From the IMG/VR virus record IMGVR_UViG_3300029702_000002: 64,000 nucleotides of DNA. The stretch is one strand, 5' to 3'. This DNA comes from a virus. Lineage: Duplodnaviria; Heunggongvirae; Uroviricota; Caudoviricetes. The notes under the pieces are model-generated. The model searched no databases. It saw only the letters and a list, made by a program, of their open reading frames with translations, and had not been told where the DNA came from. Position numbers and translations under genes: made by a program. Positions 28,550 to 39,904 of the stretch are shown piece after piece; the stretch's first letter is position 1, and each line of letters opens with the position of its first letter.

Positions 28550-28858
28550 TTGATGGCCTTCCTACATCACGGCCATCAGGAGGAATACATGTCAGCACTA
28601 AAAAAGCAGCGCATCGATTTGAGATTAACCGATGACGATAAAAGCATCATCGAGGAAGCTGCCGCAATGTCTAACCAGAGCATTACTCAGTTTATGGTTA
28701 GCAGTGCATCTGAACGTGCCGTGAAAGTTATAGAGCAACACCGTAGACTAGTTCTGAATGAAGAATCCTGGAATCTGGTTATGGACGCTATAAGCAATCC
28801 TCCGGCACCGAACGACAAGCTGAAACGAGCTGCTGATCGTCTGAAAAGCATGGAGTAG
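28550..28858 (+). CDS. DUF1778-type antitoxin (TacA/KacA-like)
   Basis: About 90-100 aa; motif QRIDLRLTDDDKSIIEEAAAMSNQSITQFM; directly upstream of a GNAT gene with an 8-nt gap. Alternative start at ATG 28589 with AGGAGG RBS. Confidence 0.7.
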   Translation: MMAFLHHGHQEEYMSALKKQRIDLRLTDDDKSIIEEAAAMSNQSITQFMVSSASERAVKVIEQHRRLVLNEESWNLVMDAISNPPAPNDKLKRAADRLKSME

Positions 28859-28865
28859 TTTACTC

Positions 28866-29387
28866 GTGGATAATATAAAGATAGAAATTTTCTCTGGAGA
28901 GAAAGATTATGATTTGAATGGTTTTGATTGCGGTGAAGAATCACTAAATGCCTTTTTAACCAACCACTTAAAAAGGCAGCATGAGGGAAAAATTCTTCGC
29001 GCTTATGTGCTTTGCACGAAAGAAGGCAGACCAAAAGTGTTAGGGTATTACACTTTGTCAGGTAGCTGCTTTGAAAAGGAGTCCTTACCTTCAAGAAGCC
29101 AGCAAAAGAAGGTACCTTATCGGAATGTTCCAAGTGTTACTTTGGGTAGGCTGGCTTTGGACAAGTCCCTTCAAGGTCAAGGATTTGGCTCAATGCTTGT
29201 AACACATGCAATGCGCGTTGTGTACAATGCATCTCTTGCTGTAGGCATTCATGGACTTTTCGTTGAGGCGTTAAATGACAAAGCCAAGGCGTTTTATAAA
29301 AGTTTAGACTTTATCCAGCTGGTTGGTAACAACGAGCGTTCTTTGTTCTATCCTACAAAATCTATCGAAAAATTGTTCGAAGAATAA
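28866..29387 (+). CDS. GNAT-family acetyltransferase toxin (TacT/KacT/ItaT-like)
   Basis: 173 aa; GNAT acetyl-CoA-binding motif LQGQGFGSMLVTHAM; partner of the DUF1778-like gene. Confidence 0.7.
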   Translation: MDNIKIEIFSGEKDYDLNGFDCGEESLNAFLTNHLKRQHEGKILRAYVLCTKEGRPKVLGYYTLSGSCFEKESLPSRSQQKKVPYRNVPSVTLGRLALDKSLQGQGFGSMLVTHAMRVVYNASLAVGIHGLFVEALNDKAKAFYKSLDFIQLVGNNERSLFYPTKSIEKLFEE

Positions 29388-30527: not shown

Positions 30528-30849
30528 TTTTTACGCCATACGCGGCTAACCCCAAAAGCAGTGCGGTAATAATGAACGACGTTATTTTAGAAACAATGCC
30601 GCCAAAGAACCCACTTGAGATGGAATCTAACCGGTTAAGGAGTTTGTCCAGATTGGAGTGTTGAATACTATGTTGCGCCGGGGTCATATCACCAAAGTAG
30701 GTTTTCAGCTGATCATTGACCTCCTGGCCAATTTCTTCACGTAGCTCTTTACCTAATTTGCCAACAACCTCCCGAGCAACGATCGCGGCAATACGCTCAA
30801 CTTGCTCTGTTGTAACGCCCGCCATCTCGTTCGACATGTTTTCCTCCAT
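30514..30849 (-). CDS. tail-anchored small membrane protein (holin-like candidate)
   Basis: 111 aa; C-terminal transmembrane segment ITSFIITALLLGLAAYGV. Confidence 0.4.
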   Translation of the reverse strand: MEENMSNEMAGVTTEQVERIAAIVAREVVGKLGKELREEIGQEVNDQLKTYFGDMTPAQHSIQHSNLDKLLNRLDSISSGFFGGIVSKITSFIITALLLGLAAYGVKSGLQ

Positions 30850-30900
30850 GAAAAGTCAAATCGGGATGGCGGATTTATATCACACTTCTCCTTTCAATTA

Positions 30901-30920
30901 TAGGTATATACTTACCTATC
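30901..30920. promoter_or_regulatory. intergenic palindromic motif TAGGTATATACTTACCTATC
   Basis: Motif-family member upstream of minus-strand gene 30514..30849. Confidence 0.4.
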
Positions 30921-31039
30921 TATGCATATGCCGTTTAACGGCTGTTCAAATTCGTATCTAGTAACTCACTAATATATCCCTATGATTGCGGCTGTGAGAT
31001 CGCATTTTAAACCTCACAGCCATATAAATAATGTCTAAA

Positions 31040-34000
31040 TCAGTTACTTGTTGCCCCAACAGTACCTGCAAATTTCAGCCATTGACCTGACGGACTTCTA
31101 TTACTACGGTAGTGATAAACGAGGATTGCGTTTGTAACTCCACCGTAGTCAGCTTTATGTGACGTTGTTAAACGAATTGTATAATCACCGTTAGGTAGAT
31201 TAAAAACTTCGATTATAGATTCTGCTAATTCTACAGCACCAAATCCCGTTATATTGTTGATACTGCCAGCATTGAATCCCATAGCATCGCCAAAGCCAAT
31301 CCAATAACTTTTGCTAAACGCCCCATTTGATTTTAGGTGGCTAATGAATGCGGACAAGCTCATGCCCATATCCCCACCTGAAACAGAGGAAGTTCGCACA
31401 GTCATGCTTGGAAGAGCACTGCTCTTCACATAGGAACTTAGAAGGTTTGTTACCTCTGTTTTCGTGTAAGCATTAAGGTTAGCCGCAGTCAAAGTTATAT
31501 CGGCAGAGCCATCAAACGCCACACCAGCAATTTTCCTTGCTGTCTGCAATTTTGTGGCGGTTGCGGCATTACCAGTAGTGTTCTGATTACCAGTTGTATT
31601 CACACCAGGGATTGAATCCTTAGCGGTATATACCTGCGCCCACGCTGACCATGCCGCACCTGTGTTATCTCTTCGTGAGCGAATGAAAACTGGCGCATGT
31701 GCACCGCTCGTACCACTCCAGCCAATAAGCAACTCTCCCTCACCAGCAGCACTCGCACCTTTCATGTGCAATACGTTGCCATACATGGTCGGGTAGCTAT
31801 TGTTGTACGCCTCATACATTTGAATGCCAGCAGTGCCTTGAGTAGAGCCGCTTAACGCCGTAACTCGGCCACGAGATACCAATGTATTAATATTGATATC
31901 GCCTGAACCATCAAACTTAACACCATTGATGTTTCTCGCTGTTTGCAACTTCGTAGCTGTTGAAGCATTACCGTTCAAACTACCATTTACGCCACCAGTC
32001 ACATTTAGTCCATTACCAATTGATACAGCACCGCTGGTATTATTAATTGTAATAGGTCGCAAACCGTTCCATGAACCTAATGTGTCTCCTGATGCTGTTA
32101 GCATGAAATATGTGTTCGATCCATCATTACGGATAAAGAACCCAAAGCTACCGTAAGCAATGCGGAAACCATTTGCATATTTTGAAATGATCTCGCCAGA
32201 AGATGTCAAACCTCCAGATAATGTACCACCGGTAAGAGGTAATGCACCGACATCAGAGGCTGTTGGTTTGTTTTTCGTGTTATATACTCTTCGCCATCCT
32301 GGAGAATAATCTGTGCCATTAAATACATAGATAAACTCCGCATTAGTGAGAGCACCGGAAACACTTGTCGTTGTGGCCGTTGTTATGCGGATCGTATAAT
32401 TATTTGAACTACTACCGTTATTAAATACTTCTATAACAGCTCCTGCCAATGGAATAACGCCACAACCAGTTTCACTATTTGGTATGGTTGCGCTATTGGC
32501 ATAGGCCCACGCACATCGAGCAATCCATGCCTTTGTGTTAAAGGCTCCATTATTTTGCAATAACGTCACTAACTGGGCTGTTGTTATTGCTCCGCCATTA
32601 CTTCCTGTAGTTAACCAACCAGTAGGAGATGCTGGGCAACCTATATTTGCTGGTGACAAGGAAATATTTGCCGAACCGTCAAACGACACCCCATTAATAG
32701 TACGCGCAGTCTGCAACTTCGTAGCAGTAGCCGCATTACCTGTTGTATTCTGATTACCAGTCGTATTAACACCTGGCAAATTAATATTTGCAGTACCATC
32801 AAAGCTCACGCCGCCGATAGTTCTTGCCGTCTGTAGTTTTGTAGCAGTTGCGGCATTACCAGTGGTGTTCTGATTACCCGTAGTGTTTACACCTGGAAGA
32901 TTAATATTGGCAGAACCGTCGAAACCAACTCCACCGATAGATCTTGCCGTCTGTAATTTCGTTGCTGTAGCAGCATTTCCTGAAAGACTTGAAATAAATG
33001 GATGTGAACAGTAATAACCTCGTCCATTTTTAAAGTCCAAAATTATCTGTGCATTCGTACTTTCTGATAAAGGATCAGTTGCCCCCCACTTATAAGTGGT
33101 TTGACCAACTGCATAATCAGCCGTTGGAACAATCACATTTAATCCTTCCTCAGCAAAAATCTGGATAGGGAATGCTCTTGTCTCAACGTAAAATACACTA
33201 CACAAATCATCATCTTTCACGCTTGCGATAATCGAGTGTATAGATCGTTCAACGGTTGAATATATTGAGAAAAAACCAACAGCATATGAACCGCGATCAG
33301 ACCAACCGCCCGGCATAACAAAACCATTAAACTCACAATTATTCATAGCGTATCCGCCAGCTGAGGAATAAGTGGTGATAACCACTCGTGAGGCTAATTC
33401 ATCTGTGCCACCACCAGTTCGGCGAAAGACTACAGGATACCACTTACCGCTTACTGCATTTGCAGGAGCAGAGAAAGTGTATTTTCGCATCCCCTTTTTC
33501 TTATCCACTTCACCTTTGCTGTAAACATTAATGTTATTCAGGAAGCGGCCCTTGTCGGGGATATCAGCACCATTCTGATCCTTCTGTAGTCTTTTTTCAG
33601 CATTATCATATGCGGCCTTAACTGCTTTTGGCGTTGCGGCCAGCGATTCACTGGTGCTATCGACAGCACTGCTAAGTTTCACAACACCTTTAGTTGTAAG
33701 GCTTGCGTCTTCCATCGCAACTGCACCGGCAATCTCTTCAGCACGATCAGCAGCAGCTTCCGCACGGGTCGCAGCGGATTCAGCAGCAGTTTTGCTCTGA
33801 GATGCTGCCGTCGCACTGCCTGCCGCCTCTGTTGCTTTCGTGGATGCTGTCGTGGCGCTGCCCTTCGCTGCGGACGCTTGTCTGGTCGCCTCATCTTTTG
33901 AAGCAGACGCCGATGATGCCGATGACGCTGCCGAACTGGCGGACGATGCGGCTGCCGTTTTTGAGGATTCTGCACGGGTTTCCGACGCTTTCGCGTTCGT

Positions 34001-35077
34001 TTCGGATGTCTTCGCTGCGGAAGCAGACCTCGCTGCTGCGCTGGCCTGTTCAGTGGCTTCGCCAGCCTTCGTTGTGGCTGTTGAAGCAGACGATGCGGCA
34101 CTTTCTGCCGATTTTCCGGCGGCGGTGGCACTGGCTGAGGCCTGCCCGGCACTTGTTGACGCGGCACTGGCAGACGACGCAGCCGCTGTTTTTGAGCCTG
34201 CCGCAGCCGAAGCGCTCTGTCCCGCTGCCGTTTCAGAAGACCTGGCGTTCGTCTCGGACGTTTTTGCCGCCTTCGCGGAATTTCCTGCCGCCGTTGCCGA
34301 GGAAGCGGCATTACTGGCGCTCGAGGCTGCGCTCGTTTCTGATGATTTCGCTGCCTCTTTTGAGGCCGCCGCATCCCGGGCTGAGGTGGCAGCTTCTGAC
34401 GCTTTCGTGGTCGCGGTGGATGCAGAAGTGGCTGCTGATTGTTGTGACGCTGCGGCATTCGTTTCAGATTTTTTCGCAGCAGTTGCACTCGCACTTGCGG
34501 CACTTTGTGAGGATGCCGCAGCGGATGCACTTTGAGACGCTTGAGAGGCTTTTTCTCCAGCGGTATTGGCGCTTTCTGCTGCTGCGGCAGCACTGGCCGC
34601 CGCCTCACGAGCTTTGTCGCCAGCAGCATCAATCGCGTCAGTGTTATTTTTATACCACTCAACGTTTTCGTTGTGCTCGTTGACGATCTGCATTAGCGGC
34701 TTAACGGTTACTTCTGTACCGTCTTCACGCTCGATTGTCACCTCATCCAGAGCAGTCAACCAACTGCGCATAGACTTGGAATCAGCCGACATACGCGACA
34801 TTAGTGCTGTAAAGCGCGCGCTAAACTGTGTTAAGTCGCCTTCATAGGTCGTAATGATTCGGCACGGAACCTCAGACTGAGTTTCGCCGGTATAAGGTTC
34901 TGAGAGAACAATATTCGTATCGCTTATTACGCGCTTGATCTCATACAGCTTATTGTCGGGGCCAATGACGATCATCCCCGGCAACACACCATTAGCTGTT
35001 ACGTTCCAGGCTGTCCCTGCCCCAACCAGAGTATTGCTACCCTGTGTAAATGTGATAGTACCTTCCCTGTACCACAT
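31040..35077 (-). CDS. tail fiber protein (side tail fiber type) with Ala/Ser-rich fibre repeats
   Basis: 1345 aa; about 300 aa of SETxAxxSxxAA-type low-complexity repeats; four to five copies of NTTGNAATATKLQTAR.I.GV.FDGSA.I.LPGV. Confidence 0.75.
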   Translation of the reverse strand: MWYREGTITFTQGSNTLVGAGTAWNVTANGVLPGMIVIGPDNKLYEIKRVISDTNIVLSEPYTGETQSEVPCRIITTYEGDLTQFSARFTALMSRMSADSKSMRSWLTALDEVTIEREDGTEVTVKPLMQIVNEHNENVEWYKNNTDAIDAAGDKAREAAASAAAAAESANTAGEKASQASQSASAAASSQSAASASATAAKKSETNAAASQQSAATSASTATTKASEAATSARDAAASKEAAKSSETSAASSASNAASSATAAGNSAKAAKTSETNARSSETAAGQSASAAAGSKTAAASSASAASTSAGQASASATAAGKSAESAASSASTATTKAGEATEQASAAARSASAAKTSETNAKASETRAESSKTAAASSASSAASSASSASASKDEATRQASAAKGSATTASTKATEAAGSATAASQSKTAAESAATRAEAAADRAEEIAGAVAMEDASLTTKGVVKLSSAVDSTSESLAATPKAVKAAYDNAEKRLQKDQNGADIPDKGRFLNNINVYSKGEVDKKKGMRKYTFSAPANAVSGKWYPVVFRRTGGGTDELASRVVITTYSSAGGYAMNNCEFNGFVMPGGWSDRGSYAVGFFSIYSTVERSIHSIIASVKDDDLCSVFYVETRAFPIQIFAEEGLNVIVPTADYAVGQTTYKWGATDPLSESTNAQIILDFKNGRGYYCSHPFISSLSGNAATATKLQTARSIGGVGFDGSANINLPGVNTTGNQNTTGNAATATKLQTARTIGGVSFDGTANINLPGVNTTGNQNTTGNAATATKLQTARTINGVSFDGSANISLSPANIGCPASPTGWLTTGSNGGAITTAQLVTLLQNNGAFNTKAWIARCAWAYANSATIPNSETGCGVIPLAGAVIEVFNNGSSSNNYTIRITTATTTSVSGALTNAEFIYVFNGTDYSPGWRRVYNTKNKPTASDVGALPLTGGTLSGGLTSSGEIISKYANGFRIAYGSFGFFIRNDGSNTYFMLTASGDTLGSWNGLRPITINNTSGAVSIGNGLNVTGGVNGSLNGNASTATKLQTARNINGVKFDGSGDININTLVSRGRVTALSGSTQGTAGIQMYEAYNNSYPTMYGNVLHMKGASAAGEGELLIGWSGTSGAHAPVFIRSRRDNTGAAWSAWAQVYTAKDSIPGVNTTGNQNTTGNAATATKLQTARKIAGVAFDGSADITLTAANLNAYTKTEVTNLLSSYVKSSALPSMTVRTSSVSGGDMGMSLSAFISHLKSNGAFSKSYWIGFGDAMGFNAGSINNITGFGAVELAESIIEVFNLPNGDYTIRLTTSHKADYGGVTNAILVYHYRSNRSPSGQWLKFAGTVGATSN
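33680..34640. repeat. low-complexity GC-rich coding repeat region (Ala/Ser-rich fibre repeats)
   Basis: Repetitive gc(n)gc codon periodicity; produces long spurious ORFs on both strands in the ORF track. Confidence 0.7.
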
Positions 35078-35121
35078 GTTGAATATGCTCCTTGATTTGG
35101 CGGGTTATCCTTGCCCGCCAT

Positions 35122-35135
35122 TAAGTAAATACTTA
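35122..35135. promoter_or_regulatory. intergenic motif TAAGTAAATACTTA upstream of the tail fiber gene
   Basis: Motif-family member about 45 nt upstream of the start at 35077. Confidence 0.4.
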
Positions 35136-35170
35136 CCTATTTTTACCGATATAAAATTTTTTTTCCACCA

Positions 35171-38100
35171 TCACAGACGGCCAATTCTTACTCGTAGGAC
35201 GTTGTTATCGTCATAAACGTCAATCCGCTGACCATTTATAACCAATCGCCCATTGCCGCCGCTATTACCGTTGATCTCAAGCGTTCCATTTTTGCCGAAC
35301 CGCCATCCAGATCTACCGCTAACAAAATTGGTAGATTGCAGATCGCCTACTTTTGCATTGGTGATTGTGCCATCCTTGATATACGCTCCATTCATATAGG
35401 CGATACTGTTTTCGATAACAAATGGCGTTGTGATCTTCCCGTTAACAGAGTTGACCAAACCAAACCTGTCCGCCTGAACCAAAAACTGAGATAGCCCAGT
35501 GGTGTCAATACCAAGCGCAATACCGGCAACATACTTCTGCCCTCCGCTCGTTGAAGTCTCCATTTTCAACGTCCACGCGGTTGACACTTTTTTGTTGGTA
35601 TCAGCAATAGCTGTTGCCTGCTGTTGAATTGTCGCGGTATTTCCATCCACCTCTGCTTTCAGAGTATCGATTCGCCCACTTAGAGCATTATCTGCCTGCG
35701 TTCTCGCTGTCGTTTCAGTTGTGACCGCCGCAGAAATGTTGGCTGCTGTTTGAGACTCTAAGTTTGTGATTTGGGTCGCCAATGCCGCATCTTGCTCTGT
35801 ACGCGTTTTCGTTTCGGTTGCCACAGCCGCTTTAATATCCTCTTTGTATTGAGAGGTCAGCTTGGTGATCTGAGATGACAACGCCGAGTCAGCATCAGTT
35901 CGAGCCTGCGTTTCCACTGCAACGGCCGCACTAATATCTTTCGCAGTCTGTGCTTTTAAACTTGAAACCTCTTTTGTTAAAGCGGTATCACCATCTGCAC
36001 GAGCCGTTGTTTCTTTGGCAAGAGACGCCTCGAGATCATTAGCTTTTGCTGTAAGAGATGTAATCTGGCTGGACAATGCACTATCGGCGTCAGTCCTTGC
36101 CTTTGTCTCTACAGCAACGGCTGCGGCAATGTCAGTTCCGGTCTGCGCCCGCAGGCTGTTAATTTCTCGTGAGAGCGCCTCGTCAGCACTTGCTCTGGCC
36201 TCCTGCTCCTGAGTGATGGCGGCTGATATATCACCGTCAACCTTTGCTTGAAGCTGGTTTATTTGTTTAGCTAACGCAGAGTCTCCGCTCGCACGAGCCT
36301 CCTGCTCACTGCGTATTGCAGCAGAAATATCATCATCAACTTTTGCCTGAAGTTGGGTGATCTGGCTTGCCAGAGCCGAATCTTCCGTTGCTCGGGCTTC
36401 TTGCTCTTCCTTAATGGCTGCGACAATATCGTTGCTTACTTTCGACTCAAGCTGAGTTATTTGTTTCGTCAAAGCTTCATCGGCAGATGTACGAGCCTCC
36501 TGTTCTGTACTAATCGCCGCGCTGATATCTCCTTCAAACTTAGATTGCAGCTGAGTGACACGCTTTGCCAACGCTTCATCGCCATCGGCACGAGCGGTGG
36601 ACTCTTCCAGAATACTGGCCTTAATGTCTTCGCCAATTTCTACGCGAATTTCTTCAACCTTCGTAGCCATTGCAGACATATCATCAGCAAAGGTTTTCTG
36701 TGTTGTTGCGATCTTCGCGTTATTGACCATCTGCTTGTGCTGGTCTTCATCTTGACGAAGAGCCAGGTCAATATTTGTTTTGGCTAACGCCTCAATGTTC
36801 GTAGTCAGTTCTGCACTTGCACGATCGACCTCTGCAACCGTCTTTTTCATTTCTTCAACGGCAGCGGAGCTTTCCTCTACCGTTGACTGCAACACTTCCA
36901 GTTGTTTAGCGTTTGCAGCATCGCCTTCAACACGAGCCTCGCTTTCCTTAGCAATAAGAGCCGCCGCTTCATCTCTTGCAGCCTTTATTGCCTCGACTGT
37001 ATTAGCGAGAGCTTTATCGTGTTCAGATACGGTATTTTCGATTTCAACAATTGCAGCATCAGTAGCATCAATTTTTTCAAACGCTTCATTGACCTTGTCG
37101 ATCGTTGCCGAAACCTCACCTTTAAGCTCGGTTTGTGCGTTCTCCAAAGCATCGCTACGCTCGTTGAATTTTATTTCAAAATCCGCGAGGTTATCGCTGA
37201 ACTGCTTATCTAATTCAGCTATATCTTCCTTAACGTCGTTTACCGCCCCCTCCAAAGATTCGACGCTCTGGTTGATATGCTCATTTAACTCGTCAACGGC
37301 TTCTTGAGAGGCTTTGCTGTTGATGTCCTCAAGCAGAGCCTGACCAAGCTCGGAAGATGTAATTTTGCCAGTCAGGAACGACAGTACATCGCGAGTTGTC
37401 GCCTCTGTACCCAAGTTTGAGTTCGGAGGACTTAACATACCTCGCTTGTTCGATGCTCGAACCCAGTAATACCACGTTTCGCTATCCCCAAGACCAGCAT
37501 GTGTAAAGGTGGTGCTTGCAGACTCTGCGATCAGTTTCGCCGTATCCAGATTATTGGTCTGGGACGCGTAAACATTAATGTGATCAAGGTCTACCGAATC
37601 TGGATTAACCCAATTCAGTATCACATTACGATAGTCTCCAACGGCCGTTAATGACGTTGGGGCATCTGGCGGTGTCATTGTGCCCAGCACCTGATAAACG
37701 GTACTGATAATCTCTGTTTTTTTACCGTTGAATGAAACCGCATACAGCTGGAAGTCGTAGCGTCCATTCTCCGCAACATTAACGATTTCGTATTGCTCTT
37801 CGGTTACACGCGCCGATTGCCAGTTCGATACATTGTTTTCATCAGAACGTCGCCAACTGATCCAATACTCTGGAGATTTCCCTTCCCATGTTGCAGTCAG
37901 TTTTACTGACAGGTTGCCAGGGCTTGAGAGATAAGTCCCTTCGGTGATTTGCAAATTAGACGGCTTGGAGTAAGTCGGGTCCAATACCGTCGTATTTTGC
38001 GGGATAAGCGTTGCACCATTGTCGATCGCCTCATATTTAGACGGATTGTTCTCAACAGCGGTGATGTCAAAGCTACCCGGCGTTTCCCCCTGCGCGATGT

Positions 38101-39904: not shown

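Follow-up and report, generated by a model that had tools for sequence, protein, structure and literature searches.

Repeats in the J and tail fibre genes of an SSU5-like phage-plasmid are old, protein-level elements of fibre shafts

Two genes for distal tail proteins, encoded in a 64,000-nucleotide stretch of caudoviral DNA (the window), carry extensive internal repeats. This raises the question of whether such repeats are recombination hot spots that vary the length and specificity of the receptor-binding apparatus, as a first-pass annotation of the sequence proposed, or building blocks of the proteins themselves. The annotation was right that both genes are repeat-built, as three types of repeat are present, far beyond chance in comparison with shuffled sequences. 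We conclude that the repeats in both tail-tip genes are real but ordinary, and that they are old elements of fibre shafts maintained at the protein level.

The window represents an SSU5-like phage-plasmid, with 1 mismatch in 11.8 kb relative to the Escherichia coli plasmid pRHB14-C22_3 (CP057798); the family is present in 229 of 5426 complete E. coli genomes. According to the ORF list of the window and to annotated relatives, the gpJ-like gene (J) follows genes M, L, K and I in a siphovirus tail module, and relatives at 93-98% DNA identity annotate the order M-L-K-I-J. The J open reading frame as listed begins at a TTG codon (39904), and the true start is likely the ATG at 39898, which matches the annotated ATG of relatives and yields a protein of 1575 aa; residue numbers used here count from the TTG, and numbering from the ATG is lower by 2. 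The second gene was assigned on the basis of its orthologue in Cyrano, annotated as tail fibre, and of matches to PHROG tail-fibre families. A holin gene directly follows it in both the window and Cyrano. Neither a tail fibre assembly (Tfa/U-type) chaperone gene nor an invertase gene flanks the fibre gene in the window; several relatives do have a tail fibre assembly gene. The phage-plasmid papers PMC9600943 and PMC10879196 contain nothing specific on the repeats of J or the fibre. Features of both genes are collected in Table 1.

Table 1. Positions of genes, domains, repeats and exchangeable segments in the window
Feature	Residues	Position	Strand	Basis
gpJ-like tail tip / central fibre gene (J)		35171-39904	-	ORF list, Pfam, annotation of relatives
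J alpha-helical shaft (~580 aa)	~846-1428	35621-37369	-	hydrophobic period, AlphaFold2
J array, ten tandem 33-aa (99-nt) units	1100-1428	35621-36607	-	autocorrelation, unit HMM
J tail-tip fibre domain PF09327	1425-1559	35228-35632	-	Pfam E = 1.4e-41
Tail fibre gene (1345 aa)		31040-35077	-	ORF list, PHROG tail-fibre families, Cyrano annotation
Fibre N-terminal domain	1-153	34619-35077	-	comparison of relatives
~43 uninterrupted Ala/Ser heptads	154-454	33716-34618	-	autocorrelation, hydrophobic period
PF03406 'phage tail fibre repeat' motif	459-499	33581-33703	-	Pfam E = 1e-19 (fragment)
Cassette 1	~500-689	33011-33580	-	genome comparison
Tandem 40-aa modules m1-m3	690-731, 730-771, 770-811	32645-33010	-	repeat analysis
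Internal Mu S' receptor-binding-like domain	795-933	32279-32695	-	8ju3 residues 188-334, domain E = 1e-26
Gp34_trimer domain, also Mu S-like	910-1011	32045-32350	-	Pfam and structure match
Module m4, proximal edge of cassette 2	1026-1067	31877-32002	-	59-nt exact tract with Cyrano
Cassette 2	1068-1158	31604-31876	-	unrelated to Cyrano, nearly identical to p4_0.2
Module m5	1159-1200	31478-31603	-	exact tracts of 65 nt (Cyrano) and 144 nt (p4_0.2)
C-terminal tip cassette	1201-1345	31043-31477	-	sequence comparison

Architecture of J and its 33-aa repeat array

Pfam identifies FNIII-A_GpJ, Phage-tail_3, fn3 and Phage_Tail_Tip domains in J, with strong matches for the N-terminal hub domains (PF24801, FNIII-A_GpJ, E = 1.5e-29; PF13550, Phage-tail_3, E = 7e-34), and the tip domain matches lambda J residues 839-971, T1 gp33 and DEV gp56. 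Lambda gpJ is composed of a hub, FNIII domains, an alpha-helical shaft, a beta-prism and a receptor-binding domain (PMC11101478). The window protein shares with it the M-L-K-I-J gene context and the order of FNIII-A_GpJ, Phage-tail_3, fn3 and PF09327. It differs in its shaft, which spans 53 aa (809-861) in lambda, in its ten 33-aa units, and in its C-terminus, since no lambda-type Ig-like (LamB-binding) receptor-binding domain was found past PF09327 and the protein stops about 18 aa after that domain. In alignments, the relatives from Y. pestis, TOE3 and S. Anatum have an additional C-terminal J domain of about 150 aa. The NCBIfam model lambda_TipJ scores 526 bits on J against a cut-off of 1950, with the match limited to residues 25-958; J is therefore, judging from its sequence, a relative of lambda J and not its equivalent.

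The shaft is irregular proximally and is formed distally by the repeat array, and its hydrophobic period changes from 3.56 (aa 846-1099) to 3.65 (aa 1100-1428), the latter value corresponding to 33/9. The first-pass annotation located the array at about 35700-36700, and its limits are here corrected (Table 1). It consists of nine 33-aa units and one 32-aa unit (unit 7). Residues E2, R6, D10, A12, L13 and L20 do not vary among the nine in-register units, and I17 is almost constant, with V in unit 1. Self-identity of the protein at lag 33 is 0.486, compared with a maximum of 0.174 in 1000 shuffles. An AlphaFold2 monomer model of a J fragment, for which the input alignment came from a search of a large protein database, contains a single helix over J aa 1091-1409 (residues 2-320 of the fragment, the only part of J submitted) followed by a beta-rich tip. 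Confidence in this model is moderate (mean pLDDT 71.5, pLDDT 60-75 in the helix, pTM 0.30). The F2-pyocin fibre (25vf) and T1 gp33 (9l9p) both align with the final units of the array.

We conclude that the array is shaft and not specificity domain. Both window genes probably encode modular trimeric fibres, with repeats as the structural building blocks of their shafts. The shaft of the F-pyocin is a three-stranded coiled coil (PMC13455828), and by analogy with F-pyocin and lambda structures (PMC13455828, PMC11101478) both window fibres would be trimeric coiled coils. In J, the array would lengthen the alpha-helical shaft that connects FN3 domains to the tail-tip domain in a lambda-type J, each unit adding an estimated ~5 nm. 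T1 gp33 has a 33-aa repeat of the same type ('ALSREIDQLKAQIGDDIQASLTDIREVIATETE'), although only about three units are recognisable there compared with ten in the window; a C-terminal ending of the 'RVQIGRL' type is common to J, T1 gp33 and DEV gp56 (9ze4). The C-terminus of T1 gp33 is predicted to stick out by about 37 nm (T1 paper). DEV gp56 operates with a separate receptor-binding protein, as some T1-like phages reportedly do, and F-pyocin side fibres dock on the central-fibre shaft (PMC13455828).

Repeats that recur every 32-33 aa occur widely among PF09327 (DUF1983) proteins and T7-type fibre proteins in the large protein database, where the matches are mostly fragments of at most 850 aa and yield no length distribution for full J.

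A different structure has been considered for the array, in which a beta-layer or kink at 'KVDGDISAAI' in every unit would interrupt the coiled coil and produce an alpha/beta coiled coil or a segmented flexible rod. This stretch is loosely similar to the beta-layer motif MATKDDIAN (PMC4786415), positions 25-27 of each unit form a conserved D/G-rich stretch, and a Gly kink in the F-pyocin shaft serves as a docking site (PMC13455828). Furthermore, flexibility prevented resolution of the C-terminus of T1 gp33, a region with the same repeat, which was described from AlphaFold3 as an alpha/beta-helix fold. However, the AlphaFold2 helix is unbroken through all units, the period of 3.65 suits a coiled coil of the 11/3 type, and the 4-3-4-4 core spacing is unlike the 9- or 6-residue beta-layer pattern, so that we regard an interrupted structure as distinctly unlikely. 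A beta-layer in each unit, according to the Hartmann 2016 motif, was supported neither by periodicity nor by AlphaFold2 and is retained as a minor alternative only. Since the T1 paper describes the predicted C-terminus of T1 gp33 as an alpha/beta-helix fold, parts of the J shaft may depart from a plain coiled coil.

DNA-level divergence and length of the J array

Applied to the region, Tandem Repeats Finder detected the 120-nt module array of the fibre, at 79% identity, as its sole repeat, and missed the J and heptad arrays. It misses the J array because its units share just 43-63% DNA identity; J and heptad repeats were instead measured by protein autocorrelation and unit HMMs. The longest exact run at lag 99 within the J array is 11 nt, and there is a single repeated 12-mer. 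Where units agree in amino acid, their codons also agree with a frequency of 0.322, against 0.341 expected by chance. The units are thus old and conserved at the protein level only, which disfavours homologous recombination in cis: RecA needs at least 31-34 bp of exact pairing and Red-beta at least 23-27 bp (PMC3945230).

Array length was surveyed in systematic samples of about 60 rows each. It is unchanged in 56 of the 59 rows sampled from 166 matching plasmids (two of the others lack 99 nt and one carries an IS1 insertion), and 40 of the 42 E. coli records sampled share it as well. Three different deletions of exactly one unit (99 nt) were found; their junctions lie at microhomologies of 3-11 nt, and their polarity was judged by comparison with close relatives instead of on a rooted tree. 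No expansion was seen among the sampled plasmids and E. coli records. More distant lineages have 1-10 units by alignment and HMM counts, in which only matches spaced 31-35 aa were counted. The proposed variation in J length is thus weakly supported, in that unit number does differ across lineages and one-unit variants exist, but these are rare and are contractions only. Unequal homologous crossing-over, the mechanism implied by the annotation, is disfavoured by the junctions, the short exact runs and the random codons. The array would instead be altered only by rare exact one-unit deletions at such microhomologies.

A more specific function can be imagined for the 33-aa unit, namely that it sets, in quantised steps, the length of a central-fibre shaft that is unusually long (estimated at 85-90 nm), so that the reach of the tail tip would be tuned in ~5-nm steps (1-10 units) to the thickness of O-antigen or capsule or to the length of a co-inherited side fibre. 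Randomised codons would then keep the ruler stable, and the rare microhomology deletions would provide shorter variants. We consider this idea speculative and rather unlikely. We also considered whether lineages with more J units have a longer or shorter coiled coil in the fibre; the data are too sparse and inconsistent to support such a correlation.

Heptads, modules and cassettes of the tail fibre

The N-terminal domain of the fibre is conserved along with J in close relatives. It is followed by the Ala/Ser stretch, which the first-pass annotation described as roughly 300 codons of 'SETxAxxS' repeats at 33680-34640; the stretch was recovered, and the motif is a heptad with the consensus x-S-A-(T/S)-A-A-x and no register break. 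Autocorrelation reaches 0.35-0.41 at lags 7, 14 and so on up to 42, over a background of about 0.18, and the heptads would be expected to make a canonical coiled-coil shaft.

Alternatively, the region could be a compositionally biased, disordered linker whose repeat is a by-product of low complexity. It is composed of 70-80% Ala, Ser and Thr, it lies outside all Pfam and NCBIfam models, and it contains long antisense ORFs and is often broken in annotation. Against this, the register is kept over ~43 heptads with a hydrophobic period of exactly 3.50 and clear residue preferences at given positions (position 5 is Ala in 42 of 46, position 1 is Ser in 34 of 46), identity at lag 7 is 0.45 compared with a maximum of 0.33 in composition-preserving shuffles, and exact length is retained in alleles that are 73-82% identical in DNA. 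A disordered linker is therefore very improbable. As a practical matter, the region often gives rise to truncated fibre calls and to spurious antisense genes.

Synonymous codons are random among heptads as well, and no heptad-scale indel was found in ~55 sampled plasmids, down to 73-82% DNA identity. The annotation had expected repeat numbers to vary, and had named invariance across relatives as evidence against its proposal; for the Ala/Ser repeats, invariance is what was found. The length of the heptad shaft is under strong constraint in the SSU5-like lineage. Coiled-coil spacer proteins are reported to conserve length rather than sequence (review PMC5082667), and the window shafts are similar in that heptad length is exact at 73% DNA identity and J units keep their protein pattern only. 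By this analogy the shafts may function as spacers or rulers.

Distal to the heptads, the fibre contains five copies of a module, three of them in tandem. The annotation had recognised dispersed copies of a 36-aa module; the copies exist, with a period of 40 aa (120 nt) instead, and the examples it gave lie inside the tandem array, ~20-40 nt off the motif. In the fibre, identity at lag 40 reaches 0.77, whereas shuffled sequences do not exceed 0.25. The module ('GNAATATKLQTAR..FDGS.NI') has no Pfam model, and among solved structures only a weak match was obtained, to the C-terminus of phage L Dec (E = 0.08). We rejected the possibility that PF03406 corresponds to this module, as PF03406 matches the motif 'TKGVVKLSS...ATPKAVKAAYD' instead; Mu S residues 105-172 align at the PF03406 motif.

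In order to locate mosaic breakpoints, three genomes (the window, Cyrano and p4_0.2) were compared in detail, and the edges of megablast blocks were used in four more. Each breakpoint among the three genomes coincides with the PF03406 motif or with module 1, 4 or 5, where orthologous exact tracts of 41-144 nt are found between phages beside unrelated cassettes. The PF03406 motif is the proximal crossover point, with the last exact tract before cassette 1 at 33618-33658 (41 nt) and the first one past it at 32910-32953 (44 nt), inside m1. Cassette 1 is unrelated to Cyrano and p4_0.2 and is common to lambdoid side tail fibres; phage phi458 matches the window over 32808-34553 at 93% identity. Module m5 bounds cassette 2 on its distal side and the C-terminal tip cassette on its proximal side. 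The tip cassette and the internal Mu S'-like domain are paralogues with 36% identity; this cassette is common to the window and Cyrano and unrelated in p4_0.2. Module number in relatives is 0, 2, 3, 4, 5 or 7, copy number of the tandem modules varies between related plasmids, and SSU5 differs from an Enterobacter plasmid by exactly three modules. The suggestion that repeats favour domain shuffling therefore stands for the 40-aa modules, the one repeat type of the three that clearly serves in the exchange of receptor-binding cassettes, and we conclude that these modules and the PF03406 motif are the real plasticity elements.

The orthologous tracts are long enough for recombination of the RecA or Red type. 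Crossovers at modules and at PF03406 would let SSU5-like phage-plasmids and lambdoid phages exchange the receptor-binding cassettes in between, and would alter module number. Such swaps may affect host range. Copies of the module within the window are 53-74% identical, with exact runs of at most 17 nt.

The proposal that all these repeats are DNA-level recombination substrates, with frequent unequal homologous crossing-over resizing all three arrays in the manner of contingency loci and generating variants of length and specificity, can now be weighed as a whole. It would account for the 1-10 J units among lineages, for the one-unit J variants, for a module number of 0-7 that changes by whole modules, and for the 120-nt array being detectable at 79% identity. 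However, J units at 43-63% identity, with exact runs of at most 12 nt, fall far below the 23-34 bp of minimal pairing, and their synonymous codons are random. The J array is constant in nearly all sampled plasmids and E. coli records, with zero expansions, its deletions have microhomology junctions, and the heptads lack indels in ~55 records even at 73% identity. Neither J units nor modules are the near-identical DNA units of a contingency locus, and neither the J array nor the heptads have copy-number polymorphism of that type among close isolates, variation being found in the tandem modules. Frequent resizing of all three arrays is thus unlikely.

Plastic and length-constrained parts of the receptor-binding apparatus

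The tail fibres lambda Stf, Mu S/S', P1 S, P2 H and T4 gp34-37 are reportedly mosaic, with conserved motifs as recombination points, as is said to have been described by Haggard-Ljungquist in 1992, Sandmeier in 1992 and 1994 and Tetart in 1998. The window fibre resembles fibres of the Stf, Mu S and P2 H type in its PF03406 motif, in its matches to domains of Mu S, Mu S' and T4 gp34, in its DNA identity of 86-93% to lambdoid side tail fibre genes, and in having unrelated cassettes flanked by conserved motifs. It differs from them in its 40-aa module without a Pfam model, in the lack of a flanking invertase or fibre assembly gene, and in the presence of two paralogous Mu S'-like domains in a single fibre. 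Mosaicism at the modules is thus a known kind of tail-fibre mosaicism in a new member, and the repeats of J and the fibre do not reveal a new mechanism.

What the analysis provides is a map of the plastic and the fixed parts of the receptor-binding apparatus in a widespread family of E. coli phage-plasmids. The plastic parts are the cassettes exchanged at 40-aa modules and at PF03406, also with lambdoid phages, and the length-constrained parts are both coiled-coil shafts. Such a map is of use in the engineering and prediction of host range and in annotation.

The two distal tail genes and their element

The tail fibre gene and the gene for the gpJ-like tail tip protein (J) are both encoded on the minus strand. 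Upstream of them are the tape measure gene and genes M, L, K and I; downstream come the holin, endolysin and spanin genes. J is numbered here from the TTG at 39904, the ATG at 39898 being its probable start. Escherichia phage Cyrano shares 97.5% identity with this DNA, and the E. coli plasmid pRHB14-C22_3 (CP057798) differs from it by one base over 11.8 kb (35968, within J unit 7; C in the window, T in CP057798). J relatives turned up in 474 plasmids of a plasmid collection and, among 5426 complete E. coli genomes, in 229, each time on a plasmid. These matches identify the element as an SSU5-like phage-plasmid. It also carries three tRNA genes (Ser-TGA, Thr-TGT and Asn-GTT; 16331-16783, minus strand) and a toxin-antitoxin pair (~28553-29387, plus strand) that lies between the lysis cassette and parA; its toxin gene (28866-29387) is of the KacT GNAT type, as assigned via the Cyrano annotation at 97% DNA identity.

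The first-pass annotation proposed that repeats in both distal tail proteins are hot spots for length and specificity variation. Three repeat types do exist, far beyond chance (lag-33 protein self-identity over J aa 1100-1428 is 0.486, and 1000 shuffles give 0.174 at most), and they had been located closely, although the fibre module, sized at 36 aa, is actually 40 aa long, with a 120-nt period and five copies.

Features of the tail fibre and J genes in the window
Feature	Position	Strand	Details
Tail fibre gene	31040-35077	-	ORF, 1345 aa
C-terminal fibre tip	31043-31477	-	paralogue of internal Mu S'-like domain; 36% identity, E = 7e-13
Module m5	31478-31603	-	single copy
Module m4	31877-32002	-	single copy
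Mu S' receptor-binding-like domain	32279-32695	-	fibre aa 795-933; solved-structure match
Mu S-like and T4 gp34 trimerisation domain			fibre aa 910-1031; solved-structure match
Modules m1-m3	32645-33010	-	tandem
Ala/Ser heptad region	33716-34618	-	fibre aa 154-454
gpJ-like tail tip gene	35171-39904	-	ORF from TTG at 39904
J array	35621-36607	-	J aa 1100-1428; ten tandem units (nine of 33 aa, one of 32 aa)

Structure and length of the J array

By Pfam, J contains FNIII-A_GpJ, Phage-tail_3 and fn3 domains up to residue 830 and the PF09327 tail-tip fibre domain at residues 1425-1559, and the repeats occupy the gap from the last FN3 domain to the tip. The equivalent position in lambda J is a 53-residue three-helix shaft (809-861) that refolds upon receptor binding (PMC11101478). 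The solved chains nearest to J by sequence are T1 gp33 (9l9p), the F2-pyocin fibre, DEV gp56 and lambda J, and T1 gp33, like the window J, has a 33-aa repeat of the same kind. An AlphaFold2 monomer model from an alignment of 40 sequences (mean pLDDT 71.5) renders residues 1091-1409 as one continuous helix followed by a beta-rich tip, and the hydrophobic period of 3.65 (33/9) indicates a near-straight coiled coil. Because domain position, solved relatives, modelled helix and period agree, the array is predicted to be the distal 330 residues of a ~580-residue helical shaft. Since a helix rises ~0.15 nm per residue, each unit would lengthen the shaft by ~5 nm. Long-shaft J proteins have precedent in T1 and F-type pyocin, and repeats with a 32-33-residue period are frequent in PF09327 (DUF1983) tail-tip and T7-type fibre proteins of many bacteria. 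The window J ends with '...NNVLRVRIGRL' (35171-35230), matched at the end of T1 gp33 and DEV gp56, and a separate receptor-binding protein encoded close to the gpJ-like gene is reported for both phages; J of Y. pestis, TOE3 and S. Anatum instead has an additional C-terminal domain of ~150 aa.

At the DNA level the array is not a useful repeat, because its units are only 43-63% identical, exact matches reach at most 12 nt (11 nt is the maximum at lag 99, and a single 12-mer recurs), and shared amino acids use the same codon at chance level (32.2% vs 34.1% expected from codon usage). Across the initial 23 residues, units 6 and 8 share 82% protein identity, yet DNA identity over the matching 69 nt is only 59%. 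To pair homologous DNA efficiently, RecA requires 31-34 bp of exact identity and Red-beta 23-27 bp (PMC3945230).

Array length was surveyed in a systematic sample of 59 rows out of 166 matching plasmids: it equals the query in 56, is shorter by 99 nt in two, is interrupted by IS1 in one, and exceeds the query in none of the 59. An overlapping sample of E. coli genomes gave 42 full-length matches, of which 40 keep this length and two are shorter by 99 nt. Together with the divergence of the units, these counts argue against the array as a recombination hot spot. Three distinct one-unit events were recovered: at units 3/4 in PEC178 and 2013C-4991 (identical junction, 10-nt microhomology CAAAGGTTGA), at units 4/5 in AH02 (junction GAC, following a 27-nt imperfect match), and in PhiR41_1 relative to the O104:H4 plasmid (11-nt junction GCTGCTATTAA). 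In all three the extra unit of the longer allele differs from its neighbour and is no copy of it, so the changes are deletions. Of NZ_CP020118.1 and NZ_CP035843.1, one has IS1 inside the J array and the other IS100 inside the J gene; both are probably defective phage-plasmids.

Across longer evolutionary distances the unit number varies (counting only HMM hits spaced 31-35 aa, read with the alignment): ten in the window and O104:H4 types, six in Y. pestis pMT1, five in SSU5, Enterobacter, AVS0747, TOE3 and S. Anatum, and one in STEC388. Klebsiella-type elements have a different, giant C-terminal region, with J of ~1,875 to >3,900 aa. These elements, Klebsiella phage p4727 among them, have an unrelated C-terminal extension of J, and the annotated J gene measures 5,625 nt (1,874 aa) in pKPHS1 and 11,772 nt (~3,920 aa) in the E. 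coli plasmid elppa6.

Heptads, modules and cassettes of the tail fibre

The Ala/Ser region comprises ~43 heptads in unbroken register (consensus x-S-A-(T/S)-A-A-x), with autocorrelation peaks at 7, 14 ... 42 and a hydrophobic period of 3.50. Sixty rows were sampled from 222 plasmids sharing heptad DNA; ~55 cover most of the region, and in all of these the record and query spans agree to one base, including eight rows at just 73-82% identity and lambdoid prophage-like plasmids. Heptad number is thus fixed within this lineage. The PF03406 tail fibre repeat motif lies at the identical residue, 461, in 8/8 close relatives. The first-pass annotation had itself named invariant repeat number as evidence against its reading, and invariance was found for the heptad part of it. 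Ala/Ser tracts are shorter in more distant lineages (57-223 aa). The CP057798 annotation cuts the fibre to 2676 nt and sets an antisense 'hypothetical protein' over the heptads (window 33852-34535, plus strand), and at this site many related plasmids carry either nothing annotated or just a hypothetical protein. Both strands have long ORFs at 33679-34683; since the window fibre ORF is unbroken over 1345 aa, the truncated and antisense calls look like a repeat-driven annotation artefact.

The region 33596-41000 (J and fibre residues 1-494) is common to all close relatives at 93-98% identity, and divergence beyond it is block-wise. In sliding-window alignments, the window fibre is 95-100% identical to Cyrano at residues 1-475, unrelated at ~480-695 and ~1045-1155, and 93-100% identical at ~1205-1345; against p4_0.2 it is 92-100% identical at 1-475, unrelated at ~480-695, ~100% identical at ~1045-1155 and unrelated at ~1205-1345. 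Every unrelated block has its edges within the PF03406 motif or within module 1, 4 or 5. Exact tracts flanking the blocks between genomes measure 41, 44, 59, 65 and 144 nt, every one above the pairing minimum; module copies inside one genome share ≤17 nt. Lambdoid phages match parts of 32808-34553 at 78-93% identity, and phi458 spans all of it at 93%, first swapped cassette included, so fibre exchange extends across phage families.

Relatives have 0, 2, 3, 4, 5 or 7 modules, and the fibres of SSU5 and an Enterobacter plasmid are exactly three tandem modules apart and otherwise alignable. No Pfam model was found for the 40-aa module, and its sole solved-structure match is a weak one to the phage L Dec protein C-terminus (E = 0.08).

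With its two Mu S'-like domains, the fibre may derive from fusion of two fibre ends or may provide two binding sites. Between the fibre stop and holin (window 30849-31040), a tail-fibre assembly or chaperone gene is absent from the window and Cyrano; in SSU5, AH02, p4_0.2, TOE3 and Y. pestis this site is occupied by genes for tail-fibre assembly, an adhesin or cor. The fibre of S. Anatum pSAN1-1735 is adjoined (137-2995) by a recombinase gene and a pair of oppositely oriented tail-fibre assembly genes, a layout that suggests a fibre end invertible like those of Mu or P1; it is not present in the window.

A probable model of stable shafts and exchangeable cassettes

On the best-supported reading, each of the two proteins is a modular trimeric fibre. 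Its shaft would be built from structural elements, the 33-aa units in J and the heptads in the fibre, maintained through selection on protein, and their DNA would be too diverged for recombination in cis, leaving both stable. The modules and PF03406 motif would serve as conserved linkers, where different phage genomes may exchange receptor-binding cassettes by homologous recombination. The proposed recombination and shuffling thus holds for cassette swaps and module-number change at these linkers, but not for the J array and heptads as DNA-level hot spots. Such swapping is classic tail-fibre mosaicism, a picture reportedly due to Haggard-Ljungquist 1992, Sandmeier 1994 and Tetart 1998. Specific to this element are the shaft length, the whole-unit microhomology deletions, the strictly conserved length of the heptad array and the clear match of breakpoints to modules.
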